A DNA stretch of 61,165 bases, counting the filler. It is 4 parts of 4 records of this genome, joined end to end, with 100 filler letters (N's around TTAATTAATTAA, not from the genome) between each part and the next. Parts side by side here need not be neighbours in the genome. Positions count along the whole stretch, not along the records: positions 1 to 29,927 come from DRR723986_11140; 3 more parts are not named here. One strand, 5' to 3'. Shown here one piece after another: positions 4,940-27,101 of the stretch. Made by a program: the position numbers and the translations under genes. The notes beneath the pieces are model-generated. The model saw nothing but the letters and a program-made list of their open reading frames with translations. It was not told the origin of the DNA and made no database searches. Within the stretch, counting starts at the first letter, position 1, and each line of letters starts with the position of its first letter.

Positions 4940-5030
4940 GCTGTCGCCGTCGGGAGCAAAAGGTCTGCTAGGATACCGAGCTTGCCGGTCCAGGTGTAGC
5001 GCACGGCACTGATTTCTTTCGGGGTTATTC

Positions 5031-6404: not shown

Positions 6405-6530
6405 ACCCCTGGGCCGGGTGGCGGCGCGTTTAGCAGCTTTCTCATTTGGCATTTGCGAATTTGCGTCTATATTCAATCAAGGCTCTATAAAAGAACCACC
6501 AAGAACAATAATCCTCGGGGGGGGAAAGTT

Positions 6531-9017
6531 GTGCCGGAAAGGTACGCGATAGCCATTGTAGGCGCCGGGCCCGCGGGCCTCAGTGCGGCCGGTCGTGCGG
6601 CAGAATACGATCGGGAAAGTGGCGCCACGTCACCCAGCTACATCCTCCTCGAAGGTTTCGATACCTTCGCCAAGACCATCCAGAAGTACCAGAAAGGCAA
6701 GCACGTCATGGACGAGCCTGGCTTCTTGCAGCTGCGCAGTCCGGTGCCGTTCACGGCGGGTAAACGTGAGGAGATTCTTGGTGCCTGGCAGCAGAGCCTG
6801 GATGCCGGTATTCACATCCGCTACGGGGTTGAGGTCACAGCGATCCAGGGTGAACTCGGCAACTTCACCCTGAGTATCGGTGGTGGTGAGACCATCGAGG
6901 CGGAAAACATCGTCCTGTCCATCGGTACCCAGGGCAACCCACGCTACCTGGGCGTCGACGGTGACCGTGAGTCAGATTTTGTCCGCTATACCCTGGATGA
7001 CCCGGCGGACTTCAAGGGTGAGACCATTATGGTCGTTGGCGCCGGCGACGCCGCGATCGAGAACGCTATTGCCCTGGCCGATTACAACGCGGTGTACATC
7101 GTCAACCGGCGCAACGAATTCAGCCGGGCCAAGGATGGTAACTTGAATGCCGTTCTGGCGGCGATCAATGACAAGAGCAACCGGTTCTACTGTCGCTACG
7201 AGGCGTCGGTCAATCGCCTGGAATTGCCCAGCGAGCCGGGTGGCCTGGGCGCCATGGTGCTCAATACACCGTCAGGCGAGGAGCGTATTGAATGCCACCG
7301 GATTATTGCCCGCCTGGGCACGGTGCCACCGCGCAGCTTCGTCGAATCCTGTGGCATCGAGATCAGCGGTGACAGCGCCGATGCGGTGCCGGATGTCGAT
7401 CGGCATTACCAGAGTAACGTCCCCGGGCTATACATCATTGGCGCTCTGGGCGGTTATCCGCTGATCAAGCAGGCCATGAACCAGGGCTATGATGTCGTCG
7501 AGTTCATCAACGGCAGGGACACCAAGCCGGCGGATTACCCCCTGCTGCAAAGCCAGTTCTCGGGCCTGCCTTATGTGATGGATGCCGAGGATGTGCTCTC
7601 GTTGTACCAGAGCCGGGTGCCCATGTTCCGCCGGATGAACCCCCTCGCTTTCCGCGAACTGATCATCGAGAGCCGGATCATCGTCAGCCTGCCCCCGGCC
7701 GATATGGCCCATGCGCCACCGCCGGCTGACCGGTCGACCGCGTTTGTGCCCGCCGATGAGCCGGTGTACAGCCACGGTGAATTCAGCACCACCTTCTATA
7801 CCATTGTGGAAGGTGAGGTGCAGATGCAGCTCGAAGAAGATGGGCCATTGCATACCCTCAAGCCCGGCCAGTTTTTCGGCGAAATGAGCCTGATCTCCGG
7901 GCGCCCGCGCCAGGGTTCGGCGGTGGTCGGTCGCGATTGCATCCTGATCGAGACCCCGCGTCGGATCATGGTCAAGCTGATGAACTCCAATGAGCAGGTG
8001 CGCACCGGGATTGACCGGGTGTTCATCATGCGCGCCCTGCAGTCGGCGTTCCGGCCCACACTGGAGCTGGCCCAGCTGGCAGATATTGCCGGCCGAGTCG
8101 AGCCCTGCCAGTTCAAGGCAGGTGAAACCCTGTTTACCGAGGGCGAGGCGGGAGACTGCCTGCACCTGGTACGCAGTGGTACGGTGATCCTGTCTCGCGG
8201 CAGCGCTGACCTGGTGGTGGCTCAACAGCACTCCGGGGAGTTGGTCGGTCAGATGGCGCTGATGGGAGCACCCCTGAGGCGTGACACTGCCACTGCCGCG
8301 GTGCGCACCGAGACCCTGTTGATCAGGCAGCCCGAGTTCCTCGCCCTGGTCAACAGCCAGCCCGACCATATCGGTGTCTTGCAGGGACGCCTGACCGAGT
8401 TACTCAAGAAATCCAATACCATGGCCTCGCAGCCGGAAGCGGCCCGGGCCATCGGTTTCCTGATGGAGCAGGGCCTTGGGGAAGCGACCAATGCCCTGGT
8501 TATCGACGAAGCCCTGTGCGTCGGCTGTGACAATTGCGAGCGTGCCTGCGCCGAGACCCATGGGGGTATTTCCCGGCTTAACCGGGAGTCCGGGGCCTCC
8601 CTGGCTAATCTCCATGTGCCGATTTCCTGTCGTCATTGCGAACTGCCGCACTGCATGAAGGACTGCCCGCCGGATGCGATTCGCCGAGCCCCAAATGGTG
8701 AGGTTTTCATTACCGACAGCTGCATTGGCTGCGGCAACTGTGAGACCAACTGCCCCTACGATGCGATCAAGTTGAGCTATGCGGCACCACCCAAGCCAGG
8801 CCTGCTGTCCTGGCTGTTCCTGGGCCGCGGCCCCGGGCCGGGTGAGCCAGAGCACTTCCAACCCACCGCCGAGTCCAAGGACGTGGGCAAGAAGGCGGTC
8901 AAGTGCGATGCCTGTATGGGACAGGCTGGTGGCCCGGCCTGCGTTCGGGCCTGCCCCACCGGGGCGGCGATCAGGCTCTCCCCGGAACAATTTGTTGAAT
9001 TGGTGGAAGCGCGATGA
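6531..9017 (+). CDS. FAD/NAD(P)H oxidoreductase fused to two cyclic-nucleotide-binding domains and a 4x[4Fe-4S] domain
   Basis: GAGPAG and GAGDAA Rossmann motifs; FGEMSLISGRPR and VGQMALMGAPLRRDTATA cNMP cassettes; CVGCDNCERAC, CRHCELPHCMKDCP, CIGCGNCETNCP, CDAC...CVRACP; GTG start after a G-rich RBS. Confidence 0.88.
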   Translation: MPERYAIAIVGAGPAGLSAAGRAAEYDRESGATSPSYILLEGFDTFAKTIQKYQKGKHVMDEPGFLQLRSPVPFTAGKREEILGAWQQSLDAGIHIRYGVEVTAIQGELGNFTLSIGGGETIEAENIVLSIGTQGNPRYLGVDGDRESDFVRYTLDDPADFKGETIMVVGAGDAAIENAIALADYNAVYIVNRRNEFSRAKDGNLNAVLAAINDKSNRFYCRYEASVNRLELPSEPGGLGAMVLNTPSGEERIECHRIIARLGTVPPRSFVESCGIEISGDSADAVPDVDRHYQSNVPGLYIIGALGGYPLIKQAMNQGYDVVEFINGRDTKPADYPLLQSQFSGLPYVMDAEDVLSLYQSRVPMFRRMNPLAFRELIIESRIIVSLPPADMAHAPPPADRSTAFVPADEPVYSHGEFSTTFYTIVEGEVQMQLEEDGPLHTLKPGQFFGEMSLISGRPRQGSAVVGRDCILIETPRRIMVKLMNSNEQVRTGIDRVFIMRALQSAFRPTLELAQLADIAGRVEPCQFKAGETLFTEGEAGDCLHLVRSGTVILSRGSADLVVAQQHSGELVGQMALMGAPLRRDTATAAVRTETLLIRQPEFLALVNSQPDHIGVLQGRLTELLKKSNTMASQPEAARAIGFLMEQGLGEATNALVIDEALCVGCDNCERACAETHGGISRLNRESGASLANLHVPISCRHCELPHCMKDCPPDAIRRAPNGEVFITDSCIGCGNCETNCPYDAIKLSYAAPPKPGLLSWLFLGRGPGPGEPEHFQPTAESKDVGKKAVKCDACMGQAGGPACVRACPTGAAIRLSPEQFVELVEAR

Positions 9018-9898
9018 GCCTGCGCCAGACTGTGCTTGGCTGGAACCGCCATGCCTACCTCAAGTGGGGCGTGCTGGTCATCATTGTCAGTGCAGCGCTA
9101 TACATCAGCCAGTGGTGGAGTGCGAGCCAGCCGCCCAATGGCGGGACCTGGCAGGGCTATGTGCTGGGCACTGCCGGTGCCCTGCTGATTCTCTGGCTGT
9201 CACTGCTTGGGATCCGCAAGCGCAGCTACCGTTCCAACATGGGTACGGTGCAGGGCTGGACCTCGGCCCATGTCTATCTCGGCAGCGCGCTGCTGGTGAT
9301 TGCAACCCTGCACTGCGCCATGCAGTTCGGCTGGAATGTGCATACCCTGGCCTACGCTTTGATGTGCCTAGTCATCTTCTCCGGTTTCTACGGCATCTAC
9401 GTCTATGTTCACCTGCCTGAGCGTATGGCCGCCAACAGCGCGGAGAAAGACCGCGCCCGTTGGCTGGACGAGCTCGATGACCTGGACGCCAGCATCCGTG
9501 ACGTGGTGCAGCGCTGTGACGCCGAGTTACAAAGCATGGCCTTGTCGGCCCTCGAACTGACCCGGTTCGGTGGCTCGGCGTGGCACCAGCTGAGCGCCCG
9601 GGATTACTCGCGCCTGCAGCCGCCTGGTGGCGGCCGGCCGGTGGCCAACAAAGAACAGGCGGTAATATTGCAGACCCTTGCCGAGCGCATACCGAATGCG
9701 CGCAAACGTTCCGAGGCCGAAGTACTGAATGAGCTATTGGCGCTGTTCGGTCGCCGCCAGGTGATCCTGCACGTGCTGCGCAAGGACATCCAGCTCAAGG
9801 GGCTGGTCAAGGTCTGGCTGTATCTGCACATCCCGCTGACCCTGGCGCTGCTGGTCGCGCTGGTCATCCATATTCTCTCTGTCTTTATTTACTGGTAA
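9014..9898 (+). CDS. Inner-membrane protein, predicted di-heme b type
   Basis: Several TM helices; two H-x13-H pairs (HVYLGSALLVIATLH, HIPLTLALLVALVIH); ATGA overlap with upstream gene. Confidence 0.7.
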   Translation: MSLRQTVLGWNRHAYLKWGVLVIIVSAALYISQWWSASQPPNGGTWQGYVLGTAGALLILWLSLLGIRKRSYRSNMGTVQGWTSAHVYLGSALLVIATLHCAMQFGWNVHTLAYALMCLVIFSGFYGIYVYVHLPERMAANSAEKDRARWLDELDDLDASIRDVVQRCDAELQSMALSALELTRFGGSAWHQLSARDYSRLQPPGGGRPVANKEQAVILQTLAERIPNARKRSEAEVLNELLALFGRRQVILHVLRKDIQLKGLVKVWLYLHIPLTLALLVALVIHILSVFIYW

Positions 9899-9902
9899 CG
9901 CC

Positions 9903-11621
9903 GTGTATTTTCTCGTACGCAGACTGACCGGCAGGGGCGCCAGCGAAGCACTGGAAGCTGACTTCCAGGGTGAACAGCTGACCTTTGGCAGTGGTGGCAT
10001 GGTCGAACTGCCCGGGCTGGATGGCAGCCTTCAGCTGGAAAAATCCGGCGATGGTGCCGCCCGCTACAGCGCGCGCAAGCTAGCCCTGGAGTTTGAGGGC
10101 AAGGCGACCAAGTCCGGTACCCTGGCGGTGGGCGACAGCCTGCAGTTGCCGGGATATACCCTGCAACTCATTCCCGCTCCGGCGGGCTTCGACCTGGCAG
10201 TGCAGCTGGCTCCGGCGGAAGGTCGTGCAAGGATCGACCACGGTCGCCTGACCCTGGCGGAGAGTGCATTCAGTATCCGCAGGGCCAGCTGGGTGTTGGC
10301 CCTGCTGGTCCTGATCCTGTTCCTGATCATACCGGCGGCTGGCCTGTTGCGGCCGGAGCTGGCGGGTGTATTGCGTGATTCGCCACTGCCGGATGATGGT
10401 CTGTGGTCCAGCGGCCCCCTGGCATCGGCCCACCGTACGGCAGGTGTGGCAGAAGACTGTGGCGCCTGCCACAGCACGCCGTTTGTGATGGTCAAAGACC
10501 AGGCCTGCCTCGACTGCCACCGCGAGACCCGGGAGCATGTCAGTCTCGAGGTTCACGATCCGGAATTGTTTACTGGCGAGCGCTGTGCCTCCTGCCACCG
10601 GGAGCACAATGAGCCCGCCTGGGTAGTTAACCGGGACAAGGGTCTATGCGTGGACTGCCATGCGGACACAGGCCCCTGGCAAGTGCCGGGGGCGAGCGGG
10701 ATGAGCCCGGTACATGCCTTTACCGGGTCCGGGCACCCGGATTTCCGCCTCGCCATGTTGCTGCCCCAGGGCCCGGGCGCTGCCCACGGCTGGGAAGTCA
10801 CCCGCCAGTCGCGCGGGGACGTGCCGGCGCAGGAGCAATCCAATCTCAAGTTTGACCATGAAGTGCACCTCGATAGCGACAAGGTGCAGCACGAGGGTTC
10901 CGGCGAGGCCCTGGCCTGCGCCAGCTGTCACACGCTGGCCGATGATGGCGAGCATTTCGAGCCAGTGACCATGGATGCGCATTGCCGCAGCTGCCACACG
11001 CTCAATTTCGACATCTTTGAACCGGACCTGGAACTGCCGCACGGTGACCTGAGGGCAGCGATCGTGGCCATGGAAGCGCATTTCATTCGCGAGTTCACTG
11101 ATCCGGCCTTGCGCCAGGAAAGGGCCGGCCAGAAGCCACGGCGCGTACCGGGTAAGCGCGAGGCGGCGGCTGCCTGTGAAGGCTCCGGCCTGGATTGTGG
11201 TCGGGCAGAGGCACTCAAGGAAGCACAGTACCAGTTTGCGGAAACCGGCTGTATTACCTGCCATGAAGTGACGGAAACCGGGCTGACCGATATTTCCGAC
11301 CGCTGGTTTGTGCAACCGGTGCGGGTGACGACGGACTGGTATCCGTTCAGCAGCTTTGACCACAGCGCCCACCTGTCACTGGCGTCCGACAACGAGGCCG
11401 AGGTCTGCGTTGCCTGCCATGAGGCACCGACATCCAGTGTTGCGACCGACGTCCTGATACCCGGTCAGGCCAACTGCCTGGGCTGTCACGATGAAAACAA
11501 GGGCAACTCGGCGGTGGACTGCGTGGGTTGCCATGACTTCCACCAGGCAACTGGCGGATTGTCCACACTTGCCCGTGGTGCCGTCATAGACCGACCCGCG
11601 ATGGACTTGCAGGGGGATTGA
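9903..11621 (+). CDS. Membrane-anchored decaheme cytochrome c with N-terminal cytoplasmic domain
   Basis: Ten CxxCH motifs after an internal TM helix (WVLALLVLILFLII); ~125-aa N-terminal domain precedes the TM. Confidence 0.85.
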   Translation: MYFLVRRLTGRGASEALEADFQGEQLTFGSGGMVELPGLDGSLQLEKSGDGAARYSARKLALEFEGKATKSGTLAVGDSLQLPGYTLQLIPAPAGFDLAVQLAPAEGRARIDHGRLTLAESAFSIRRASWVLALLVLILFLIIPAAGLLRPELAGVLRDSPLPDDGLWSSGPLASAHRTAGVAEDCGACHSTPFVMVKDQACLDCHRETREHVSLEVHDPELFTGERCASCHREHNEPAWVVNRDKGLCVDCHADTGPWQVPGASGMSPVHAFTGSGHPDFRLAMLLPQGPGAAHGWEVTRQSRGDVPAQEQSNLKFDHEVHLDSDKVQHEGSGEALACASCHTLADDGEHFEPVTMDAHCRSCHTLNFDIFEPDLELPHGDLRAAIVAMEAHFIREFTDPALRQERAGQKPRRVPGKREAAAACEGSGLDCGRAEALKEAQYQFAETGCITCHEVTETGLTDISDRWFVQPVRVTTDWYPFSSFDHSAHLSLASDNEAEVCVACHEAPTSSVATDVLIPGQANCLGCHDENKGNSAVDCVGCHDFHQATGGLSTLARGAVIDRPAMDLQGD

Positions 11622-11624
11622 GCG

Positions 11625-13598
11625 ATGGCTTGGAAACTTACAGGTGCGATTCTGGCCCTGGTACTGACAGCCTGCAGCGGCGGTGGGGGTGGCGGTAGCA
11701 GCGCCGGTACCTCCCCGGATGTCGACCCTGCGAATGACCCCTGCACAGGCCAGTGTGCCGGCCCGGATTCCCGACTGACGGTAGGCGATGTAAAGCAGGT
11801 GCTAGCTCGAGCGGTACACCAGGCTGAAGCGCTTGGGGAGACCGCCACCATTGCCGTGGTGGACCGGGTAGGTAACGTGCTGGCGGTGTACCGCATGGCA
11901 GGCAAGGTCAAGGATGTGGCCATCAGCACCACCTTCCCGACTACCATCACCACCGGCCTGGAGGGTGTTGTCTTGCCAGCGGCCATTGGGGGTGACGCCC
12001 TGGCGGCCATCGCCAAGGCGGTGACCGGCGCGTATCTCTCCAGCGAAGGTAATGCCTTCACCACCCGCACCGCGAACCAGATCGTGCAGGAACACTTCAA
12101 TCCCGGCGAGCAGAACCAGCCCGGTGGTCCCCTGTTCGGTGTTCAGTTCAGCCAGCTCGCCTGCTCGGACTTCACTCTGGGCGATGCTGGCGTTGGACCC
12201 GGCCCGCAGCGCTCACCATTGGGACTTTCCGCTGATCCCGGTGGCCTGCCATTGTTTAAGAACGGTACCCCCGTGGGCGGGGTCGGGGTGATTGCCGATG
12301 GTCAGTACTCGATCGACAAGAATATCCTCAACAGTGATCGCGATATTGACGAGATGATCGCTGTCGCGGCGACCTATGACTATGCCGCGCCCAGAGATCG
12401 GCGCGCCGACCGGATCACGGTGGAGGGCAAGACCTTCCGCTTCAGCGATGTGGATTTTGATGACCTGCCGGCGGACCCGGCCCAGGCCGCGGATTTTGAC
12501 TCTCTCGTGGATGCGGGCCAGCTGCTGCCGGTGAACGGTTACACGGATGGTAGTTTGCGCGCCGGTACCGCGTTTGGCCAGCCGGACTCCGGTATAGTTC
12601 CTGCCACCGGCTTTAGCGGCCTCGATGCTTTCATGTTCGTCGATGCCGCGGGCAATAACCGCTTTCCGCCTCGCAAGGGCACTGATGCTGACAAGCTCAA
12701 CGGCGCGCCGCTCTCGGCGGCGGAAGTACGCCAGCTACTGAATTCCGCAATCGCTATCGCCAATCGGTCGCGCGCCCAGATTCGGCGGCCCCTGGGCAGT
12801 AAGGCCCGGGTGACGGTCTCCATCGTGGACAGCCAGGGTACTATTATCGGGATGTTGCGTACCCGTGACGCGCCGGTGTTTGGCGCCGATGTATCCCTGC
12901 AGAAGGCGCGTACTGCGACCCTGTTCTCGTCGCGTGATGCCGCGGACTTCTTCCGCGGAATCACCAGCCCGGCCCAATACCTCAACCCCGACCTGACGCC
13001 CAAGGCGCAGGTGTTCATGGCTTCTTACGTCGATGCCGCGCAGAACTTTATCGGCCCCCAGGCATTGACCGACGGCACGGCCTTTTCCGACCGGGCCGGC
13101 GGCAACCTGTCGCGCCCGTTCTACCCGGACGGTATCCGGGGCAACGATAACGGCCCGTTCAGTAAATCCTTTCGCAATAATGAGTGGAGCGTTTTCTCCT
13201 CCGGTCTGCAGCTGGATCTGGTATTCAACCGGATCATCGAGCACATCTTGTTTGCGGCTGGCGCCGCGCCCGCGGATGTACCACCCAATTGCGCCGAGTC
13301 GGATGCTCCCAGGCTGGCCAACGGTAGCCAGATTTTCCCTGGCAGTGTGCCGATTTACCGCGGCGATGAACTGGTCGGTGGGATCGGGGTGTCCGGCGAT
13401 GGTATCGACCAGGACGATATGATCAGTTTCCTCGGAGTGCACGAGGCAGGCCTTGCCCTGAACGGAGCGATCAACAACGCGCCGCCTGAACTGCGTGCCG
13501 ACACACTCAAGCCCCAGGGCACGCGATTGCGCTACATACAGTGTCCGCAGACGCCGTACCTGGACAGTAACGAACAGCAAGTGTGCGACGGGAAGTGA
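11625..13598 (+). CDS. Lipoprotein with two GlcG/HbpS (heme-binding) domains
   Basis: Lipobox LTAC then Gly/Ser linker; two copies of IAVVD.../KAxT.../GGxPx..VGGxGVxxDG pattern. Confidence 0.78.
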   Translation: MAWKLTGAILALVLTACSGGGGGGSSAGTSPDVDPANDPCTGQCAGPDSRLTVGDVKQVLARAVHQAEALGETATIAVVDRVGNVLAVYRMAGKVKDVAISTTFPTTITTGLEGVVLPAAIGGDALAAIAKAVTGAYLSSEGNAFTTRTANQIVQEHFNPGEQNQPGGPLFGVQFSQLACSDFTLGDAGVGPGPQRSPLGLSADPGGLPLFKNGTPVGGVGVIADGQYSIDKNILNSDRDIDEMIAVAATYDYAAPRDRRADRITVEGKTFRFSDVDFDDLPADPAQAADFDSLVDAGQLLPVNGYTDGSLRAGTAFGQPDSGIVPATGFSGLDAFMFVDAAGNNRFPPRKGTDADKLNGAPLSAAEVRQLLNSAIAIANRSRAQIRRPLGSKARVTVSIVDSQGTIIGMLRTRDAPVFGADVSLQKARTATLFSSRDAADFFRGITSPAQYLNPDLTPKAQVFMASYVDAAQNFIGPQALTDGTAFSDRAGGNLSRPFYPDGIRGNDNGPFSKSFRNNEWSVFSSGLQLDLVFNRIIEHILFAAGAAPADVPPNCAESDAPRLANGSQIFPGSVPIYRGDELVGGIGVSGDGIDQDDMISFLGVHEAGLALNGAINNAPPELRADTLKPQGTRLRYIQCPQTPYLDSNEQQVCDGK

Positions 13599-13603
13599 GC
13601 GCC

Positions 13604-15493
13604 ATGGACAGGAGAGAGCTCGTGAAAAATCCGATTCTGTACCCTGCCTTGCTGGCGACGTTGCTGATGGTACCGCTCGTCGCGCCGGCACAGGATGAAG
13701 CGGCTGCCCAGGCAGCAATGGAAGCTGACGAGGCCTGTGATGATCTGCAGACCCGCGACCGCAGCCGCAGCAGTCGCCGCCGGACCCGGGCTGCGAACCG
13801 GGATTGCGAGTACCGCGAGACGGTAGTCGACCAGGAGACCGGTGAAGTCCTCCGCGAGACCCCGGTCGCCGCCGCCCCGCGCACCGTTCTGCCGCGGCGC
13901 TATTCACCGATTCCGCGACCGACAGCCGAGCAGTATGTGGAGCATGTGGCGATACCCGACCGCTGGCGCATCGTCGACAGCCTGGGCTACGAGGACAACT
14001 GGTGGAACCCGTATGACCAGAACACGATCAAGGGCGACAAACCCATCCACGATGACTGGTTCTTCAACGTAACCGCCATCTCAGACACCGTGCTGGAATT
14101 GCGTGAGGTGCCAACCCCGGTGGGTGTTCAGTCCACGGATCGAGCCGGCACGCTGGATGTACTGGGTGGCACCGAACAGGCGACGTTCAACCAGAACCTG
14201 GCGGTTGAACTGGTCTACTACAAGGGTGACACGGTCTTCAAGCCACCGGACTGGGAATACCGATTTACCCCGGTGTTCAACTACAACTACACCGAAATCG
14301 ACGAGGTGACCGGGATCAATGCCGATCCGGCGGATGGCATTACCCGCAATGACAACCATGTGGGAATCCAGGCGGCCTTTGTCGACAAGCACTTGCGCAA
14401 CGTCTCCGACCGCTACGACTTCGACAGTATCCGGGTTGGGATCCAGCCTTTTTCCAGTGATTTCCGCGGCTTCCTGTTTCAGGACGCGCCCTTCGGTGTG
14501 CGCCTGTTCGGCAACCGTGATAACAATCGCTACCAGTACAACCTGGCCTGGTTCCGGCGCATGGAGAAGGACACCAATTCGGGCCTCAACGACATCAGTG
14601 AAGACCTGCGCGAAGATGATGTGTTCGTGGCCAATCTGTATTGGCAGGACCAGCCGGCACTGGGTTTCTTCTCCCAGTTCACCGTGCTGTACAACCGCAA
14701 TCGCGAGACGGAAATCTTTTACGACACCAATGACTTCATTGCCCGACCGGCATCTATCGGTGAGGAGCGGTTGCGCGAGTATGACGCCTATTACCTTGGC
14801 TACAACGGCGACGGCCATTTCGGTCGGCTGAACCTGACGACCTCGTTCTATGTCGCACTTGGTGAAGAGGAAGATGCCGTATTCAGCGGTGAGTCGTCGG
14901 ATATCGAGGCGTACTTCTTTGCGGTCGAGCCGTCGATGGATTTCGATTGGATTCGGGCGCGCGCCTCCTTCCTTTACGGCTCAGGTGACGACGATCCCTT
15001 CGACGACAAGAGCCAGGGCTTCGACGCCATTTTCGAGAACCCGCAGTTTGCCGGTGCCGATACCAGCTACTGGATTCGCCAGGGCGTACCGTTGATCGGT
15101 GGTGGCCGGGTGGCCCTGTCGCAGCGCAACGGGGTGCTCAACTCGCTGCGTTCGTCCAAGGAACATGGTCAGTCCAACTTCACCAACCCGGGTATCTTCC
15201 TGTTGGGTGGCGGTGTCGACCTGGACCTGTTGCCGGAACTGAGGCTGTCGTTTAACGCCAACTACCTTGCCTTTGCCGAAACCGAGGTACTGGAAGTGGC
15301 ACGGCAGCAGGATAACGTCGACAAGGAGATCGGCCTCGACCTGTCGGCCGCCGTAATCTGGCGCCCGTTCATGAGCCAGAACGTGGTGGTTAGGGTGTCC
15401 TACGCCCAGCTGCTGGGTGGCGATGGCTTTGAGGATCTTTACGGGGATGAAGACCCGTACTCCCTGCTGTGCAACCTGATACTGACCTTCTGA
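13604..15493 (+). CDS. Putative outer-membrane beta-barrel protein
   Basis: Signal peptide (...PLVAPA/QD), aromatic/Asn/Asp-rich amphipathic strands, C-terminal Phe (LILTF). Confidence 0.72.
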   Translation: MDRRELVKNPILYPALLATLLMVPLVAPAQDEAAAQAAMEADEACDDLQTRDRSRSSRRRTRAANRDCEYRETVVDQETGEVLRETPVAAAPRTVLPRRYSPIPRPTAEQYVEHVAIPDRWRIVDSLGYEDNWWNPYDQNTIKGDKPIHDDWFFNVTAISDTVLELREVPTPVGVQSTDRAGTLDVLGGTEQATFNQNLAVELVYYKGDTVFKPPDWEYRFTPVFNYNYTEIDEVTGINADPADGITRNDNHVGIQAAFVDKHLRNVSDRYDFDSIRVGIQPFSSDFRGFLFQDAPFGVRLFGNRDNNRYQYNLAWFRRMEKDTNSGLNDISEDLREDDVFVANLYWQDQPALGFFSQFTVLYNRNRETEIFYDTNDFIARPASIGEERLREYDAYYLGYNGDGHFGRLNLTTSFYVALGEEEDAVFSGESSDIEAYFFAVEPSMDFDWIRARASFLYGSGDDDPFDDKSQGFDAIFENPQFAGADTSYWIRQGVPLIGGGRVALSQRNGVLNSLRSSKEHGQSNFTNPGIFLLGGGVDLDLLPELRLSFNANYLAFAETEVLEVARQQDNVDKEIGLDLSAAVIWRPFMSQNVVVRVSYAQLLGGDGFEDLYGDEDPYSLLCNLILTF

Positions 15494-15502
15494 GGAGCTG
15501 AT

Positions 15503-18500
15503 ATGAGATTTCGCGACAGTAAACAGCCCCGGAGAACAGGCCTCGCGGTCTGGGGGGCGGCACTCGGACTGGTCTTGCTCGCCGTTCCCGTCAGCTACAC
15601 CCTGAGTGCTTCCGGATACAATAAGGTCGAGCGTAATCACGTGACTGCGCCCAACGCGCCTGCCAGCCAGAGCAGCGCCCAGATGGATGCCAAGTCGGAA
15701 GGTTGCGAGAGCTGCCACACGGCCACGGACCAGAAAACCATGCACGCCAACCCGGCGGTGAAGCTGGGCTGTACCGATTGTCATGGCGGCAACGCCGGCG
15801 TGTTCCGACCCGAGGGCACCGACAGTATTGCCCAGCAGGCTTATCTCGGCGCCATGGAAGAGGCGCATGTGCTGCCGGAGTATCCGGATGACTGGCATTT
15901 CCCGTCCAGCGCCAACCCCGAGCAGTCCTATACCCTGCTCAACCGCGAGAGCCCGGAATTTGTCCGGTTCGTAAACCCGTCTGATTACCGAATTGCCCGA
16001 GAGGCCTGCGGCGCCTGTCACCTGCCGATCATCGAAGCCGCCGAGCGCAGCCTGATGGCGACTTCCGCCATGCTCTGGGGTGGTGCCGCCTACAATAACG
16101 GTATCCTGCCGTTCAAGCGTTACATCCTGGGTGAGGCCTATACCCGCGAGGGTGAGCCCGCCTCAATCGTGGCGCCGCTCAAGCCCACCGCCGAGATGAC
16201 CGAGCAAGCCAGCATCCTGCCCCAGCTTTATCCACTGCCGGCCTGGGAAACAGTCAAGCCGGGCGATATCTTCCGAGTCTTCGAGCGCGGTGGCCGTAAT
16301 ATCAGCAACCTGTTCCCGGAAACCGGGCTGCCCAATGCCCTCGGGCAGTTGCAGCGTCTGGAGGAACCGGGCAGACCCGATATCCGCCAGTCGAACCGGG
16401 GCCCCGGCACCGGTGGCCGTATTTCGGTGCCGCTGATCAATATCACCAAGACCCGCCTGAACGATCCCCATACCTGGTTTATGGGCACCAATGACCAGCC
16501 CGGGGACTACCGCAGTTCCGGCTGTGCTTCCTGCCACGTGGTATACGCCAATGATCGCGATCCCAAGCATTCCGGTCAGTACGCGCAGTTTGGCCATACC
16601 GGGAAATCCCAGAGCGCTGACCCAACCATTCCGCGGGACCGCGAGGGGCATCCGCTCAAGCATGAATTCACCCGGGCGATCCCCACGAGCCAGTGCATGA
16701 TCTGTCACATGCACCAGCCGAATATGTTCGTGAACTCCTACCTCGGTTACACGATGTGGGACTACGAGTCGGACGCACCGTCGATGTGGCCGGAGAAGCA
16801 GGTTTACCCGACCCACGAGGAGCGCCGCAAGGTCTACGATCGCAACCCCGAGGGCGCGGCACCGCGCGGCAAATGGGCGGATATTGAGTTCCTCAAGGCC
16901 GTATCGGAAATGAACCCGACCTTGAAGGATACCCAGTTCGCCGATTACCACGGCCATGGCTGGAACTTCCGCGCGATTTTCAAACGCGACCGCAAGGGCA
17001 ACTTGCTGGACGCCGAAGGCGATATCGTTAGCGATGAGGACCCGGACAAGTTCGACAAAGCGGTGCACATGGCATCGATCCATATGGATAAGGGCATGCA
17101 CTGCGTCGATTGCCACTACGCCCAGGATAACCATGGCAACGGACATATCTACGGCGAGGTCGCAGCCGCTGTGGAGATCGACTGCAAGGACTGTCACGGC
17201 TCGATCAACGCCTACCCGAACCTGTTTACCTCGGGTCCGGCGGCCCTGGAAGGCGGCACCGATTTGGGTGCGATCCGCAACCCGGATGGTCGCCTGCGCT
17301 TCGAGTGGGTCGACAATAAGCTGATGCAGCGCTCGGTGCTGGACCCGGAGCTGGAGTGGGAAGTCAGCATGGTCAAGGACTCGGTGGACCAGGATCACGC
17401 TGACTACAACGCGAAAGCCGCCCGCGCCAAGCTAATGAGCTCGGACACTGCCAAGCAGGACTGGGGTCAGGAGGTCGCCGCCAGCGGCAGCCTCGCACAC
17501 GACGACGAGGAGATGGAGTGCTATACCTGCCACACCTCCTGGACCACGAGCTGTGGCGGTTGTCACCTGCCTATCCAGGCCAACGAGAAGACCGACCGAC
17601 ACCACTACGAGGGTGGCGAGACGCGTAACTACGCGACCTACAATCCGCAGGTCGCCCGCGACCAGATGTTCCTGCTCGGCCGTCGTGAGACTGCCAAGGG
17701 CGGTAAGATTGCGCCGGTCCGTTCCACCTCCGCGCTGGTCCTGTCATCCACCAATGCGAATCGGGAGAAGATTTATATCCAGCAGCCGCCGATCGCGGCG
17801 AGCGGGTACAGCTCCCAGGCCTTTAACCCGCACTTCCCGCACACCGCGCGCAAAACTGAGACCAAGCAGTGCGAGGATTGCCACCTCAGTAAGAACAACG
17901 ACAACAATGCCATAATGGCGCAGTTGTTGATGCACGGCACCGACTTTGCCGACTTCCTGGGCTTTATTGCCTATGTGGGAAGTGAAGAGCATGTCACCGG
18001 CGTGCAGGTCACTGAGTGGGAAGAGCCGCAGGCGGTGATCGGCAGCTACCTGCAGCGCTATGCCTATCCCGATTATTTCCGGCAGCATGTGGATGCAGGC
18101 AGAATTCTGGCTCACGGCTATCCGCACGGTTCCGGGCCGGTTGGCTGTGTGCAGATGCGTGGCGAGTACCTGTATGTCGCCGAGGGCAGCAAGGGCATGC
18201 AGGCCTACGATATTGCCAGCATCGCCAACAAGGGCGTTTCCCAGCGGATAATCACTGCGCCCTTCAGCCCGCTGGGGCACGATACGCGGATTGAAAGCAG
18301 CAACGCCACCTGCGTGGTGCTGCCAACTACCCAGCCCATCCATCCCTCGCGCAACGAGGGTGACCTGATGCGCAAGGTGAATCTCGAGCAGCCTTTCCAC
18401 CCTCTGTACGAGTACGCCTATATTACCGATGCCGAGGAAGGCCTTATCCTGACCAGCCTCGACACCTTCATGGATGGGGAACCGCGCAACAATTTCCTGG

Positions 18501-19252
18501 AGCGGGCGCTGACCTGGAACGAGAACGGTGTGCTCAATGGTGCCCGGCATATGGCCATTGGGGGCTACTATGCCTATGTCATCGCCGATGCCGGCCTGGT
18601 CATACTCAATATTGATCAGCCGCTGGCGCCGAAGGTTGAGGCCGTCCTGGCCCTGAACAACGGCCACTCCGTGGCGCTGCAGTTCCGCTACCTGTTTGTG
18701 ACCGACGCCGACGGGCTTAAGGTAGTCGATATCACCCGGCCCGCCGCCCCGCGGCTGGTTGAGGGCAATACCATTCCCTTGCAGCAGGCGCGGCGCATGC
18801 ACCTGGCCAGGACCTACGCCTATGTCGCGGCCGGTTCCCAGGGCATGGCCATTGTCGATATTGAAAATCCGGAGCAGCTGAAGCTGGTGCAGACCTTCGA
18901 CACGGGGCTGGTGGACAGTCACGACGTGACCGTGGCGAGCACCAACGCCTCACTGTTCGCCTACGTGGCGGATGGCAAAGGCGGGCTCAAGGTGATCCAG
19001 CTCACGTCGCCCTCCAGTCAGCCGAAGTTTTACGGCTTCAGCCCCGAGCCTCAGCCAGAGTTGATTGCCAGCTACCCGACGGCGTCTCCCGCGCTGTCAC
19101 TGTCCCGGCCGCTGGAGCGGGACCGCGGTGTGGATGAAACAGGCGGTCAGGTGGCGGTGTTCGGCCGGGTGGGTTCACGGCCGCTGAACAAGGAAGAAAT
19201 GGAATCCCTGTATCTCGATAAAGACGGTAAGCCATGGTACGTGGAAAACTGA
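15503..19252 (+). CDS. Large exported decaheme cytochrome c with C-terminal LVIVD-like repeat (beta-propeller) region
   Basis: Signal peptide; ten CxxCH motifs; C-terminal repeats YLYVAEGSKG, YAYVIADAGLVILNI, YLFVTDADGLKVVDI, YAYVAAGSQGMAIVDI, FAYVADGKGGLKVI. Confidence 0.87.
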   Translation: MRFRDSKQPRRTGLAVWGAALGLVLLAVPVSYTLSASGYNKVERNHVTAPNAPASQSSAQMDAKSEGCESCHTATDQKTMHANPAVKLGCTDCHGGNAGVFRPEGTDSIAQQAYLGAMEEAHVLPEYPDDWHFPSSANPEQSYTLLNRESPEFVRFVNPSDYRIAREACGACHLPIIEAAERSLMATSAMLWGGAAYNNGILPFKRYILGEAYTREGEPASIVAPLKPTAEMTEQASILPQLYPLPAWETVKPGDIFRVFERGGRNISNLFPETGLPNALGQLQRLEEPGRPDIRQSNRGPGTGGRISVPLINITKTRLNDPHTWFMGTNDQPGDYRSSGCASCHVVYANDRDPKHSGQYAQFGHTGKSQSADPTIPRDREGHPLKHEFTRAIPTSQCMICHMHQPNMFVNSYLGYTMWDYESDAPSMWPEKQVYPTHEERRKVYDRNPEGAAPRGKWADIEFLKAVSEMNPTLKDTQFADYHGHGWNFRAIFKRDRKGNLLDAEGDIVSDEDPDKFDKAVHMASIHMDKGMHCVDCHYAQDNHGNGHIYGEVAAAVEIDCKDCHGSINAYPNLFTSGPAALEGGTDLGAIRNPDGRLRFEWVDNKLMQRSVLDPELEWEVSMVKDSVDQDHADYNAKAARAKLMSSDTAKQDWGQEVAASGSLAHDDEEMECYTCHTSWTTSCGGCHLPIQANEKTDRHHYEGGETRNYATYNPQVARDQMFLLGRRETAKGGKIAPVRSTSALVLSSTNANREKIYIQQPPIAASGYSSQAFNPHFPHTARKTETKQCEDCHLSKNNDNNAIMAQLLMHGTDFADFLGFIAYVGSEEHVTGVQVTEWEEPQAVIGSYLQRYAYPDYFRQHVDAGRILAHGYPHGSGPVGCVQMRGEYLYVAEGSKGMQAYDIASIANKGVSQRIITAPFSPLGHDTRIESSNATCVVLPTTQPIHPSRNEGDLMRKVNLEQPFHPLYEYAYITDAEEGLILTSLDTFMDGEPRNNFLERALTWNENGVLNGARHMAIGGYYAYVIADAGLVILNIDQPLAPKVEAVLALNNGHSVALQFRYLFVTDADGLKVVDITRPAAPRLVEGNTIPLQQARRMHLARTYAYVAAGSQGMAIVDIENPEQLKLVQTFDTGLVDSHDVTVASTNASLFAYVADGKGGLKVIQLTSPSSQPKFYGFSPEPQPELIASYPTASPALSLSRPLERDRGVDETGGQVAVFGRVGSRPLNKEEMESLYLDKDGKPWYVEN

Positions 19253-20520
19253 TAGGTCTTGTATTACTGCTGCTTGGCGCTGTGTCGGCGTCAGGCCAGC
19301 CCTTGCCTGAAACGGGTGCTAACCCGCATGAAGGCGTGGCGAGCTGTGCCGCCAGCGTCTGTCATGGCAAGATCAGCGAGGATCCGTCGTCGACCGTATG
19401 GCTCAACGAGTACCGGATCTGGCTGCGCCAGGACTACCATTCAAGAGCCTACAAGACCTTGCAGACCGCCCAATCCAAGGCCATAGCCAGCAAACTCGGC
19501 TTGCCCGCGGCACACACGGCGAAGATCTGTCTGGACTGCCATGCGGACAATGTGGCGGTGGAATCGCGCGGGCGACGATTCCAGATTTCCGACGGGGTGG
19601 GTTGCGAGGCCTGTCACGGCGGTTCGGGCCAGTGGCTGGAGTCCCACGCTGAACAGGGCACGTCCCACGCCGATAACCTGGCTGCGGGTATGTACCCTAC
19701 CGAGGATCCCCTGGCCCGGGCGCGACTGTGTCTCTCCTGCCACCTCGGCACCAAGGATAAGTTCGCCACCCACCAGATCATGGGCGCGGGACATCCCCGG
19801 CTGGCCTTTGAACTTGAAACTTTCACTGTAAACCAGCCACGGCACTACGACGTGGATGCGGACTACCGCGAGCGCAAGCCCGCGATCAGCTCGGTGAACA
19901 TGTGGCTGGCGGGACTTGCGGTCACCGGTATGCAGTCGCTTGAGTTGTTGCAGGAAGCGTGGTTTACCAAGCCAAGCCTGGTGCCGGAACTGTCTTTTTA
20001 CCAGTGCCACGCCTGTCATCACCCGATGAACGACCTGCGCTGGGAGCCCGAGCCGGACGGCCTCAAGCCCGGCACCGCAAGGCTGAATGATGGCAGCCTG
20101 GTAGTGCTGGCCGTGGTCCTGGATATCCTCAACCCCGGAGACGGTCAGGCGATCGAACAGGGCCTGCGAAAATTGCACCAGGCCTCGCAGCGGGATCGCG
20201 ACGCGGTGGTCAGCGCTGCCCGTGAGTTGCAGGGCCGCCTGGAGCCCCTGGTCAGTGCGCTGGCGGGCAACAGCTATGGCCCCGATGCCATGCGGAGCCT
20301 GCGCCAGGGCTTGCTTGAAAGCGCTGCATCCGGTCGTTTCCGGCACTTCACGTCCGCTGAGCAGGTGTTCCTGGCGGTGGAGACCCTCAGCCTGTCGCTT
20401 GGCGATAACGAACGCTACACCATCCAGTTGGATGCCTGGTTCAAGACCGTGGAGGAGGATGATCCCTTCGTGCCCAAACAGTTTGCCGTGCTGGCCAGAA
20501 AAATGAGGGATGCGCTTTGA
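19234..20520 (+). CDS. Exported multiheme cytochrome c (c554-like N terminus)
   Basis: Signal peptide; CLDCH, CEACH, CLSCH, CHACH plus atypical CAASVCH; overlaps upstream stop. Confidence 0.82.
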   Translation: MVRGKLIGLVLLLLGAVSASGQPLPETGANPHEGVASCAASVCHGKISEDPSSTVWLNEYRIWLRQDYHSRAYKTLQTAQSKAIASKLGLPAAHTAKICLDCHADNVAVESRGRRFQISDGVGCEACHGGSGQWLESHAEQGTSHADNLAAGMYPTEDPLARARLCLSCHLGTKDKFATHQIMGAGHPRLAFELETFTVNQPRHYDVDADYRERKPAISSVNMWLAGLAVTGMQSLELLQEAWFTKPSLVPELSFYQCHACHHPMNDLRWEPEPDGLKPGTARLNDGSLVVLAVVLDILNPGDGQAIEQGLRKLHQASQRDRDAVVSAARELQGRLEPLVSALAGNSYGPDAMRSLRQGLLESAASGRFRHFTSAEQVFLAVETLSLSLGDNERYTIQLDAWFKTVEEDDPFVPKQFAVLARKMRDAL

Positions 20521-21572
20521 ACGGATCCGGGGCTTTCCCTGAGGCGGTCGCCGCTACTGATGTCGGCCGGCGCCGACACAATGAGGATGCCTATCTGGTC
20601 CATCCGGATGTTGGCCTGCTGGTTGTCGCGGACGGGGTTGGTGGTCACGACGCCGGGGAAGTGGCCAGCGCCATAACTTGCGAAACGATCGTGGAAGAGG
20701 TGCAGCGCGGAGCATCGCTGCAGGACGCAGTGCGAGCCGCGAACCTCGCAGTCATGCATGCCGTTGACGCGGGTAGGGGACGCGAGGGTATGGCCTCCAC
20801 GGTGGTGGCAGTGCAGTGCAAAGGTGCGGAGTTTGAGGTCGCCTGGGTTGGTGACAGCCGCGCCTACCTGTGGGATGGCAGCCTGAAGCTGATCACCCGG
20901 GATCACTCGCTGATGGAAACCCTGTTGTCCCGCGGTGAGATCACCCGCGAGGAGGCGCGCCAGCATCCGCAGCGCAATGTGATCGTTCAGGCCATCGGCC
21001 TGCAGGCGGAGAACGCCCTGCGCGTGGACAGTAACAGCGGTACCTTGCAGGAGGGTCAGATACTGCTGCTGTGCAGTGACGGGATGAGCGATATTCTGGA
21101 GAACGAGACGATTGTCGATATCCTGACGGGTGAGGGCGATCTTCAGGAACGCTGCCAGCGCCTGGTGAGTCGCTCCATCGAGGAAGGTGGCAAGGATAAT
21201 TCGACGGTTGTGCTGGTTGCCGGTACAGTGCCGGCGGGTGGCGAAGTCCGTGAGCCAGACGCTGTATGGCGCTACGATCCCGCCACCGGTGAAACCATGG
21301 GCTTGCTGGAGGTTGCGCCTGTCGCGCCCGCAGCACCGGCGATCAAGAAAGTCGGCCCCAAGGTGGATGCGGAGGCCGGGGATTCGCCACAAACGACGCA
21401 GATGATGTCAATTGCCGAGGTAGAGCGTGCGCTGGCCGCCAAGGGTCAGCTTGGCGGTGACGACAGGCGTTCCGCTGGAGGAAAAGCGGGTAAATGGCTT
21501 GTAATCGGTGCGCTGGTGTTGGCTGCCGCCGCAGCCGCCGGGTATTTTGTCAGTGTGGGCGGTGTAAATTGA
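20517..21572 (+). CDS. PP2C-family Ser/Thr protein phosphatase with C-terminal TM anchor
   Basis: GRRRHNEDA, VADGVGGH, VGDSRAY, LCSDG, GGKDN; TTGA overlap with upstream gene. Confidence 0.92.
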   Translation: MNGSGAFPEAVAATDVGRRRHNEDAYLVHPDVGLLVVADGVGGHDAGEVASAITCETIVEEVQRGASLQDAVRAANLAVMHAVDAGRGREGMASTVVAVQCKGAEFEVAWVGDSRAYLWDGSLKLITRDHSLMETLLSRGEITREEARQHPQRNVIVQAIGLQAENALRVDSNSGTLQEGQILLLCSDGMSDILENETIVDILTGEGDLQERCQRLVSRSIEEGGKDNSTVVLVAGTVPAGGEVREPDAVWRYDPATGETMGLLEVAPVAPAAPAIKKVGPKVDAEAGDSPQTTQMMSIAEVERALAAKGQLGGDDRRSAGGKAGKWLVIGALVLAAAAAAGYFVSVGGVN

Positions 21573-21594
21573 ATTTGAAAGGCGTGGGTGAATC

Positions 21595-22626
21595 ATGACT
21601 ACTTCGCAGGCGGAATTTAACGCGGAACTGGTGGCAGGTGACGGTAGCAGGCATGCCCTGGTTGGGGAGATGCATGTCGGGCGTTCGCAGGACTGCGAGA
21701 TTCCGATCGATGACGCCAAGGTTTCGCGTAAACACGCTCTGATCAGCGTTGCCGAGGAACGGGTCAATGTTGAGGACCTGGGCTCGGCTAACGGTACCCT
21801 CGTTAACGGCACGCGCATTAATGGCAAAACAGAACTGCATAACGGCGACACCTTGCAGTTCGAGAAGCACCAGTTCACCGTAGAAATTACCGGTCAGGGG
21901 GAGCCCGAGGTCGACCCGGATGCCACGGTGGTTGATGTCGGTGGCACGGACGATGAAGATGCAACTATCGTCAGCGGCTTTGCCGAGGCGCCACCGCCAG
22001 CTCCCGAACCGCCACCGGCTCCCGAACCGCCACCAGCGCCGTCACCTGATCTGCCCGGTGCCTGGGTCGACGATCCGAGCATGGGCGAGCATACGCAGGT
22101 AATGGATTTCAGCGCTGGCGCATCAGCCGCGCCTGCCAGGAGCGTGCCCCGATTGTCGGACCACGCCCATCTGATTGTACTGTCCGCCGCCGGGGATGCA
22201 CTGGAGGCCAGCGAACTTGAGCCTGCCGGCAAGGGCGAACCCGATATCTGGGAGATTGGCCGCGATCCGGCCTGTGAGGTCTGCCTGACCGAGCCCAGCG
22301 TCTCCGGTCGACACGCCCAACTGGTTCACGACAGCGGTCGCTGGCGCCTGGTTAACCTGGTTTCCGCTAACGGAATCTTCGTCAATGGCGAGAAGCGGCT
22401 GAGCGCATTCCTTTCGGATGGTGATGAAATCCGGCTTGGCAATGCCAACCTCGTATTTCACGCGCCGGTTGGCGCTGCGGCGGCGGCTCCTGCTTCGGCG
22501 GCTCCCAAGGCAGCGAAAAGCAGCGACGCTGGTGACTCAGGCGGCAATAGTAAGCTGATAATGGGTGTTGTGCTTGCCGTTGCCGTCATAGCGGTCGCAG
22601 CGGTAGCGGGATTCCTGCTGCTGTAG
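21595..22626 (+). CDS. Double FHA-domain protein with Pro-rich linker and C-terminal TM
   Basis: Two GR...SRxHA/SGRHA...NG FHA motif sets; PPPAPE repeats; hydrophobic C terminus. Confidence 0.9.
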   Translation: MTTSQAEFNAELVAGDGSRHALVGEMHVGRSQDCEIPIDDAKVSRKHALISVAEERVNVEDLGSANGTLVNGTRINGKTELHNGDTLQFEKHQFTVEITGQGEPEVDPDATVVDVGGTDDEDATIVSGFAEAPPPAPEPPPAPEPPPAPSPDLPGAWVDDPSMGEHTQVMDFSAGASAAPARSVPRLSDHAHLIVLSAAGDALEASELEPAGKGEPDIWEIGRDPACEVCLTEPSVSGRHAQLVHDSGRWRLVNLVSANGIFVNGEKRLSAFLSDGDEIRLGNANLVFHAPVGAAAAAPASAAPKAAKSSDAGDSGGNSKLIMGVVLAVAVIAVAAVAGFLLL

Positions 22627-22685
22627 TCCACGGAATAACTGACCAGAACATCCACCCGGAATTTGGGCGGCCAGTAGTCTGTAGT

Positions 22686-24080: not shown

Positions 24081-24222
24081 GAAGTGCCCCGACTCAGTTC
24101 TAAGAGGTAAAGCTTAGCCGAAACTGCCGGCCTGTGCTGCTGCAGAATAACGGTTGTTCCGGTTGGCCACTGCGGCCCCAGGGCGCTGATACTTGAGGTG
24201 AGTAACCGCTGTTGCTCACGCG

Positions 24223-25200: not shown

Positions 25201-25295
25201 TTTGGTTCATCCTGACTTTTGTGTGGAAATATTTAAAAGTCGATACTACACTGGATTGAAACCTAAAAAAATTCTCGAATCGGCGAGCCATTCGA

Positions 25296-27050: not shown

Positions 27051-27101
27051 TTGACAGAACGGGCTGGACAAAGGGCGTCCTCAGCGTAAGTGGAGTAGAA
27101 A

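Follow-up and report, generated by a model that had tools for sequence, protein, structure and literature searches.

What is achieved by nine closely packed genes which encode three multiheme cytochromes, an outer-membrane barrel, a flavoprotein and several regulatory domains at positions 6531 to 22626 of the window, the whole analysed DNA stretch of 61,165 nucleotides? An initial annotation had described these genes, here designated g1 to g9, as an undescribed trans-envelope electron conduit starting from NAD(P)H and controlled by cyclic nucleotides (cNMPs) and protein phosphorylation. Its gene layout is reproduced by open reading frame and motif counts: all nine genes lie on the plus strand, separated from g1 to g9 by -4, 4, 3, 5, 9, -19, -4 and 22 bp, and the cytochromes contain 24 CxxCH motifs (ten in g3, ten in g6, four in g7) plus one CX4CH in g7. 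The gene identities were confirmed as well, both by Pfam and NCBIfam, whose domain assignments are consistent for g1 to g9, and by the five hydrophobic segments of g2, the lipobox of g4, the LVIVD region of g6, the PP2C domain of g8 and the FHA domains of g9. With about even confidence, we read the operon as a cNMP-gated system which, in the manner of the NADPH oxidases (NOX), exports electrons from NADPH to a reductase which would act on a small solute in the periplasm and sit beneath a solute channel.

The entry point of the electrons would be the product of g1 (6531..9017), in which a flavoprotein of the thioredoxin reductase (TrxR)/ferredoxin-NADP reductase (FNR) type is predicted to be joined to two cNMP-binding domains and a DmsB/HycB-like domain for four [4Fe-4S] clusters with a conserved hydrophobic insert. 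Pfam detects Pyr_redox_2, two cNMP_binding domains and Fer4, with PF13247 scoring 34.2 bits against a cut-off of 26.2. The best NCBIfam matches of the flavin domain are YpdA and TrxR, both below cut-off, and its PDB matches include ferredoxin-NADP reductases. An alignment of 66 homologs reveals that the redox-active CxxC of TrxR is absent; the flavin domain is predicted to work like a TrxR-type FNR or YpdA and not like a low-Mr thioredoxin reductase. GxGD(A/S)A and N-R-x3-F-x-R-x-K, which according to the specificity rule for this combination indicate a preference for NADPH, are present at the key positions in 62 to 66 of the 66 rows and point to NADPH as the donor. Since all 16 Fe-S cysteines are kept in 66/66 homologs, four [4Fe-4S] clusters are to be expected. 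Binding of cNMPs, predicted from the phosphate-binding cassette G-E...R, is probable: domain A has retained its Glu in 66/66 and its Arg in 65/66 homologs, domain B its Arg in 66/66 and the canonical Glu in 44/66. In favour of cNMP control, 10 of 94 loci have a SpdA/CpdA-like phosphodiesterase gene beside the operon. In-frame fusions of g1 to g2, 1110 to 1135 residues long, occur in L122, L123 and P0381; as the tree places L122 next to L123 as its sister, the fusions probably stem from one lineage and may go back to a single event. P0349, P0391, P0395 and P0396 were rejected as evidence of gene fusion because they appear frameshifted.

g2 (9014..9898) is predicted to encode a five-helix, ferric-reductase-like cytochrome b containing two W-x3-H-x13-H motifs and an SGxxG motif. 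Its histidine pairs H86/H100 and H272/H286, kept in 113 to 115 of 115 rows, provide the four heme-ligating His by which ferric reductase domain (FRD) and NOX proteins are recognised, arranged as H-x12/13-H pairs on helix 3 and helix 5. The accessible part of PMC5566968 ties the W-x3-H-x13-H motif to FRD/NOX di-heme proteins. g2 yielded no Pfam FRD match, nor did its profile match any solved FRD protein in the PDB. As the fusions to g1 set its N-terminus in the cytoplasm, one heme would reside at each face of the membrane. Alternatively, g2 might be part of a quinone-coupled system, of the kind depicted by He et al. for PCC4, in which periplasmic cytochromes oxidise a donor and feed g2, which in turn reduces quinone, with g1 providing a second input or output. 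Such a function agrees with a fifth His, H110, kept in 114/115 rows, with a weak match to cytochrome b561 and, as far as the accessible text of PMC5566968 goes, with the proposal that the homologous inner-membrane protein (IMP) of the PCC4 cluster is a quinone-active cytochrome b and with the lack of the Fe-S gene in PCC4 subgroup I. Yet in nearly all informative loci g2 follows immediately after g1, in some of them as a fusion with it, and heme pairs at opposite membrane faces, as in the topology deduced here, constitute the NOX arrangement in which a quinone is not needed, so that we consider quinone coupling quite improbable.

The electron acceptor of g2 is presumably the product of g3 (9903..11621), which appears to consist of a cytoplasmic FHA-fold domain that has lost its G-R arginine, one transmembrane helix and a periplasmic decaheme domain. 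The latter offers 39 residues per heme, conserves exactly ten His besides those of the heme motifs, every one of them in 69 to 71 of 71 rows, and is on this pattern predicted to be an all-bis-His, wire-like decaheme. A PDB sequence search returned only marginal matches for g3 and for g7. The N-terminal domain, which had escaped the initial annotation, is recognised by PF00498 above cut-off in L123 and by Yop-YscD_cpl in three of four scanned g3-related proteins. Taken from its sequence features, the inner chain of NADPH flavoprotein, 4x[4Fe-4S] domain, two-heme ferric-reductase-like protein and decaheme is well supported, and the motifs together with the g1-g2 fusions sustain the earlier proposal of a quinol-independent path from NAD(P)H in the cytoplasm through the inner membrane into the periplasm.

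Beyond the periplasm the situation is different. g5 (13604..15493) had been annotated as a beta-barrel, and its AlphaFold2 (AF2) model indeed displays 18 long strands (mean pLDDT 67.5) following a conserved N-terminal extension. A Foldseek search with this model retrieved AlgE first (E 2e-15), then the OprD family, chitoporin and MOMP, and all top structural matches are 18-strand solute channels. Superimposition onto AlgE by VIA-align aligned 364 residues (Z 23.5, root-mean-square deviation 3.1). Judged from the model, g5 looks like a solute channel of the AlgE/OprD class. MtrB, the barrel of which comprises about 26 strands, is not among the matches listed, which by itself does not exclude it. 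At least 7,992 of 8,000 scored candidates are barrel relatives. A search for longer relatives yielded six among 7,928 candidates, namely one clean fusion, two proteins with N-terminal repeats and three frameshift-like cases. In the clean fusion, P0394, a complete g4 lipoprotein is joined to the barrel, whose signal peptide is gone. The barrel homologs P0392 and P0393 carry the long N-terminal repeats; these look SPOR-like, a feature that would link the barrel with peptidoglycan.

The fusion partner g4 (11625..13598) is an HbpS-like lipoprotein with two GlcG/HbpS (DUF336) domains, whose lipobox Cys is kept in 67 of 76 rows. In the PDB, the formaldehyde sensor EfgA matches it best (E 1.2e-4). 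K427, S590 and D597 of the C-terminal domain align with the EfgA pocket residues K57/S114/D121; among 76 rows, 76, 75 and 75, respectively, retain them, suggesting an EfgA-type pocket for a small ligand. No His of g4 is invariant (the best is present in 67/76 rows).

g6 (15503..19252) encodes a secreted decaheme protein fused to an LVIVD beta-propeller. It provides 80 residues per heme, and 13 non-motif His are invariant in 48/48 rows for only ten hemes; wide spacing and more His than ten hemes need would suit an enzyme more than a wire. The C-terminal propeller, which corresponds to the LVIVD region, is confidently modelled by AF2, and a fold search returned generic beta-propellers only. At E 0.1 no PDB sequence match was obtained for g6. 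Weak kinship to Geobacter ExtM/N/O is indicated by a match to ExtM (E 6e-20, 71 bits against a curated cut-off of 800) and by likewise weak matches to the ExtN and ExtO models. The genes of g6 homologs measure 3.7 to 4.4 kb. The LVIVD protein treated in 10.1101/2022.05.06.490989 is an unrelated one. Distant kin of the g6 heme region are stand-alone 12-heme cytochromes of about 790 to 850 residues (L137:8047-10425, L138:8177-10738 and L139:8209-10557), near which no propeller or barrel matches were found. The third cytochrome, g7 (19234..20520), is a c554-like pentaheme with four CxxCH motifs and one CX4CH (C38-x4-C43-H44), the latter kept in 60/60 aligned homologs. In eight sphingomonad-like loci a CcmH/NrfG-like TPR protein flanks the operon; it could aid heme attachment to the CX4CH motif.

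The components g5 to g7 lend themselves to a further interpretation, which is that of a true porin-cytochrome conduit: g6 or g7 would dock in or on the barrel, so that electrons originating from NADPH would reach metals, shuttles or oxygen outside the cell. The barrel gene stands directly 5' of the decaheme gene in nearly all loci, and 25 hemes are available. Barrels of the Geobacter OmbB type are narrower than MtrB, which counts for a conduit as well. In addition, extracellular electron transfer is proposed by the authors of PCC4, of ptd and of the 2026 'group 1 PCC' in the accessible portions of their papers. Against this stand the 18 strands and the AlgE/OprD-class fold as opposed to the wide MtrB class, the tethering of the wire-like g3 to the inner membrane and its occurrence without the barrel, the enzyme-like heme spacing of g6, and the fact that the clean fusion partner of the barrel, g4, lacks heme c. 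Complex prediction of the barrel (residues 100-629) with the g6 propeller gave a score of 0.01 against a mark of 0.34; as it was run without alignments and the controls remained unfolded, it has no bearing either way. Hence, of the trans-envelope path originally suggested, the portion up to the periplasm stands, whereas the wire across the outer membrane is weakened by the solute-channel class of the barrel, the g4-barrel fusion and the g6 heme spacing, and we consider a conduit unlikely.

How widespread and how coherent the system is can be seen from its distribution. Locus counts in GTDB refer to the best 80 loci of at least 562 relatives among at least 600 pattern matches. The expected co-conservation of the core is borne out beyond chance: among 52 GTDB loci with at least 9 kb of upstream DNA, 47 show g1 to g4 upstream of the barrel gene and in its orientation. 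Of 401 evenly sampled Pseudomonadota genomes, the centre genome included, 13 have a close g2 (E <1e-70) and 42 any match at 1e-5; a g6 ortholog occurs in ten (one a contig fragment), and both close g2 and g6 in nine. The seven-gene core g1 to g7 is conserved across Gamma- and Alphaproteobacteria and occurs in about 2-3% of the sampled Pseudomonadota species. Cultured carriers include strains of Parahaliea (among them Parahaliea maris), Haliea, Steroidobacter, Sphingobium (among them Sphingobium herbicidovorans) and Sphingopyxis. Sphingobium and related loci contain the seven genes in two blocks, g1-g2-g3 and g7-g4-g5-g6, which, together with genomes harbouring g1-g2-g3 only, argues for an inner and an outer module. 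The inner module alone is seen at L122:5580-10606, L123:5650-11453 and L124:5544-10628, two of them with fused g1-g2, in genomes where the outer module was not found; in L123 it adjoins genes which, read by eye, resemble dissimilatory sulfite reductase subunits. An autotransporter-barrel gene flanks the operon in nine of 94 loci (L003, L005, L010, L015, L019, L027, L033, L040 and L078).

One recurrent neighbour bears on the donor. Of the 94 loci, 15 have an NADP-glutamate dehydrogenase gene, scoring above the NCBIfam cut-off, at varied positions in the DNA that was fetched, in two of them 19 bp 5' of g1. In the sample it is present in 89 of 401 genomes compared to nine of nine with the complete system, where it lies within about 8 kb in eight. 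The label requires at least eight changes on the tree and occurs on both sides of the midpoint root; the nine carriers are mostly probable kin. Steroidobacter flavus possesses the operon without an NADP-glutamate dehydrogenase, and the open reading frame list of the window's contig contains none. The link supports coupling to NADPH and hints at nitrogen or amino-acid metabolism.

Unlike the core, the two last genes are accessory. g8 (20517..21572) encodes a PP2C phosphatase with a C-terminal membrane anchor, in whose family the catalytic Asp residues are conserved, and g9 (21595..22626) a protein with two FHA domains and a C-terminal transmembrane helix. FHA1 of g9 retains each of the phospho-threonine-binding elements G-R, S-x-x-H and N-G in 40/41 homologs, while the Arg of FHA2 is present in 17/41. 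Among 52 loci with at least 4 kb after g6, 34 have PP2C and FHA, four FHA only and 14 neither. In a quick IQ-TREE phylogeny of 54 g1 rows, the 31 tail-bearing rows all share a branch (SH-aLRT 100), a single long-branched exception aside. This branch spans Halieaceae, Alcanivoracaceae, Cellvibrionaceae, Granulosicoccaceae and Steroidobacteraceae. The PP2C/double-FHA pair is confined to this one gammaproteobacterial branch and co-inherited there; pairwise identity of g9 follows that of g3 (rho 0.87, 33 loci) and of g1 (0.81) more closely than that of g6 (0.62), the pairs being non-independent. The G-R arginine of the g3 FHA-like domain is missing in 31/31 scorable tail-bearing loci including the window (seven unscored), compared to its presence in eight of nine scorable tail-less loci (five unscored); it is also present in 13/13 further loci without a tail in the fetched DNA, some of which reach too short. 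Concerning regulation, the proposed cNMP binding is probable and PP2C/FHA are co-inherited within a branch, but phospho-control is not a core feature since 14 of the 52 informative loci lack both.

This regulatory equipment could also be taken to mean that the operon is a sensing or redox-poising device in which channel and GlcG protein detect an external molecule, the heme chain sets or reports the periplasmic redox state, and the output runs via cNMP, FHA or kinase signalling. The characterised DUF336 proteins HbpS and EfgA are sensors, and the regulatory load is heavy, with two cNMP domains, the g3 FHA-like domain, PP2C, the double FHA protein and Ser/Thr kinases near six of 94 loci, every one of them tail-bearing; a Ser/Thr kinase is also found upstream of the operon of Halieaceae bacterium WSDMB12. 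For a sensor, however, a set of 25 c and two b hemes along with four Fe-S clusters would be costly, the conserved core is devoid of any DNA-binding, kinase or cyclase domain, and the kinase adjoining g9 in the window belongs to a variable insert. A mainly sensory role appears highly doubtful.

With respect to its claimed novelty, the operon has known relatives. In the accessible part of PMC5566968 (He et al. 2017), PCC4 is made up of a porin gene, cytochrome genes for 4, 5 and 10 hemes, an IMP gene whose product has SGxxG and a pair of WX3HX13H motifs, and a gene of pfam13247. In that of 10.1101/2023.11.21.568154, ptdABCDEFG is named and its function called unknown. From the gene lists, we read PCC4 and ptdABCDEFG as one cluster, described in silico only in both cases. 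For comparison, ptd-type reference loci were recognised by gene content instead of accession (L128 complete; L125, L129 and L130 partial). They share a cNMP-Fe-S protein 25-28% identical to g1 residues about 400-825, encoded by a pfam13247-type gene directly 5' of the IMP gene just as the C-terminal half of g1 precedes g2; a five-helix FRD-like protein, PtdF, matching g2 (HHalign 98%, E 5.5e-14) including SGxxG and both histidine motifs; a tetraheme, PtdD, about 25% identical to the g7 heme domain; and a decaheme weakly similar to g3. An NAD(P)H flavoprotein and a porin belong to the ptd cluster as well. In contrast, PtdC is a separate protein with FAD_binding_6, NAD_binding_1 and Fer2 (2Fe-2S), whereas in g1 a TrxR-type Pyr_redox_2 domain is fused; the porin of L128 aligns to g5 with an HHalign probability of 0.13% (E 0.43) and without any blastp or phmmer match; PtdA resembles g6 only in a heme motif; and hemes number 5/4/10 there but 10/10/5 here. 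No GlcG protein, propeller, PP2C or FHA match was found in the ptd-type loci. Filing the operon under PCC4/ptd was rejected as the cytochrome set, the PtdB-family porin and the separate PtdC, three defining parts, are not present. By sequence comparison it is a sister variant, with four homologous parts and three unrelated ones.

More distantly, PCC3-like clusters (L126, L127, L131 and L132) contain 21 to 46 hemes and a distant g2 relative. In L127 and L131 a TrxR-like flavoprotein gene lies near the membrane protein gene, with Fer4 and Pyr_redox detected by Pfam in L131. An NAD(P)H entry point thus recurs, given the unrelated FNR plus 2Fe-2S protein of ptd and the TrxR-like gene of two PCC3-like loci. 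PMC13264449, in its accessible part, describes a first group of 11 clusters with a 4-5 kb decaheme gene beside a porin of about 20 strands and an FNR nearby in 7/11. Decaheme size, porin and ferredoxin-NADP reductase fit by description, although the accessible text mentions no GlcG, propeller, cNMP, FHA, name or mechanism; the operon is probably this 'group 1 PCC'. The designation as undescribed therefore holds in that no function has been demonstrated, but not for the inner module, which is homologous to that of PCC4/ptdABCDEFG, nor with regard to the cluster type of PMC13264449, the accessible description of which reads alike.

NOX/FRD proteins and MsrQ-Fre likewise lead electrons from NAD(P)H via flavin and two membrane b hemes to the outside and share the H-x13-H pairs, while here a TrxR-type flavoprotein with 4x[4Fe-4S] replaces the FNR type, the membrane protein has five helices and an anchored decaheme serves as presumed acceptor. 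The EF-hands of NOX5, a regulatory ligand-binding module ahead of the chain, may be likened to the cNMP domains of g1. MtrCAB, MtoAB and PioAB as well as OmbB-OmaB-OmcB resemble the operon in that a barrel gene lies beside multiheme cytochrome genes, but the AlgE-class barrel of 18 strands, the NAD(P)H start and the lack of NapC/CymA set it apart, and no MtrA, MtrB or MtrC family match above cut-off was found. Geobacter extHIJKLMNOPQS, too, combines a solute-type porin with multiheme cytochromes, which according to the accessible part of PMC5877670 act on selenite and tellurite, and thereby offers a precedent for pairing a solute porin with cytochromes that handle an oxyanion; the matches of g6 to it lie far under the cut-offs, however, its other components are unrelated and its host is anaerobic. 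No functional study of the operon was found in the literature searched, which mostly did not cover subscription journals.

The reading which we favour, NADPH-driven export of electrons to a periplasmic reductase, would proceed in four steps. First, as suggested by the motifs, g1 would oxidise NADPH at its FAD and deliver single electrons along four [4Fe-4S] clusters, gated by the two cNMP domains sitting between flavin and Fe-S domains. Second, in line with the fusions and the conserved His, the Fe-S domain would dock on g2, whose two b hemes would carry the electrons across the inner membrane. NADPH potential and membrane potential favour this outward direction. Third, the membrane-anchored g3 decaheme would move them over the periplasm. 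Finally, and least certain, g7 and g6 may reduce a small soluble substrate entering via g5, with g4 under the barrel as ligand-binding subunit. In the gammaproteobacterial branch, a membrane-anchored FHA reader and a PP2C eraser would add phospho-threonine control on the cytoplasmic side, where they seem to have replaced the FHA-like domain of g3 in this role. An oxyanion or a nitrogen oxide is our leading guess for the substrate.

Several observations weigh against this reading. In the second cNMP domain of g1, Gln replaces Glu in 22/66 homologs including the window, a peculiarity of this lineage not recorded in the initial annotation, and the SpdA/CpdA-like matches lie below curated cut-offs and stem mostly from one sphingomonad-like branch. 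g1-g2-g3 occur without detected g4, g5 and g6 in three of 13 sampled genomes, so that the inner chain is not dedicated to the outer module. The heme half of g6 is modelled with a mean pLDDT of 57.8, and an open catalytic heme is not seen. The clean fusion of g4 to g5 is represented by one protein from one contig, one of six long matches. The K-S-D triad of g4, being broadly conserved across DUF336 as stated in the accessible part of PMC8153426, speaks for an intact pocket and names no ligand. Gain of the tail and loss of the g3 arginine coincide in the same branch, amount to one evolutionary event and are only suggestive.

As to the limits of the unit, the nearest g1 relative is that of WSDMB12 (85%), and the first contig of the window (1 to about 29,900) is Halieaceae-like. 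Contigs from four public marine DNA runs (three studies) fill 26 to 30 of 30 bins of 5000-24500; no RNA run with the operon was listed among the public runs. Upstream of g1, a sigma70-like promoter candidate at 6446..6473 on the plus strand matches the consensus at 10/12 positions; three such candidates were found across the region compared to 4.7 expected in shuffles. In the upstream regions of 66 g1 genes, motifs for sigma54, the regulator FNR, NtrC and Fur are no commoner than in shuffles, and CRP-like motifs, found 11 times against a shuffle mean of 4.9 (maximum 9), are weak, non-independent and were not used. At the opposite side, a near-identical 1,913-base contig matches 21416-22627 and then continues in different sequence; its departure from the window at 22627 places the end of the conserved unit at the stop codon of g9. 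The adjacent segment, 22686-29975, encodes a Ser/Thr kinase, an OmpA-domain protein, a ShlB/FhaC transporter and a truncated two-partner-secretion (TPS) passenger. It was rejected as part of the operon on account of its lower GC content (0.57 and 0.52 versus 0.62) and because an OmpA-bearing block adjoins g9 in just one of the 80 GTDB loci; it is a variable insert beginning directly after the g9 stop. In L001 and L120, too, the operon has ShlB/TPS genes beside it. The window joins at least four contigs; gene content and GC shift across the N runs at 29928-30027, 43830-43929 and 49981-50080, and the later parts of the window may derive from other organisms; one of them encodes, at 50593-56157 on the minus strand, a protein of 1854 residues with Gly/Asp-rich repeats and, by eye, an apparent C-terminal Hint domain.

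What is new here beyond the seven-gene core is the clade-restricted PP2C/FHA tail along with the matching decay of the FHA site in g3, the fusion of g4 to the barrel, the EfgA-type pocket and the link to glutamate dehydrogenase. For annotation it matters that such barrel-plus-decaheme clusters are counted as extracellular electron transfer, yet the barrel resembles a solute channel. A direct multiheme chain from NADPH to the periplasm under cyclic-nucleotide control has no demonstrated example in the searchable literature, and working out this system would at the same time account for its sisters, the PCC3, PCC4 and ptd clusters. Direct testing is possible as cultured strains carry the 25-heme system. 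In its boldest form, which we put forward as a speculation that is unlikely to hold, the operon would be a cAMP/cGMP-switched 'NADPH oxidase with a wire', widespread among aerobic heterotrophs, whose 25 hemes lead to a new multiheme-propeller enzyme reducing a channel-delivered nitrogen oxide or similar oxyanion, with an adjacent glutamate dehydrogenase capturing the ammonium or supplying NADPH and phospho-threonine as second switch in the gammaproteobacterial branch. If this were true, bacteria common in the sea and in soil would possess a novel redox pathway in their periplasm.

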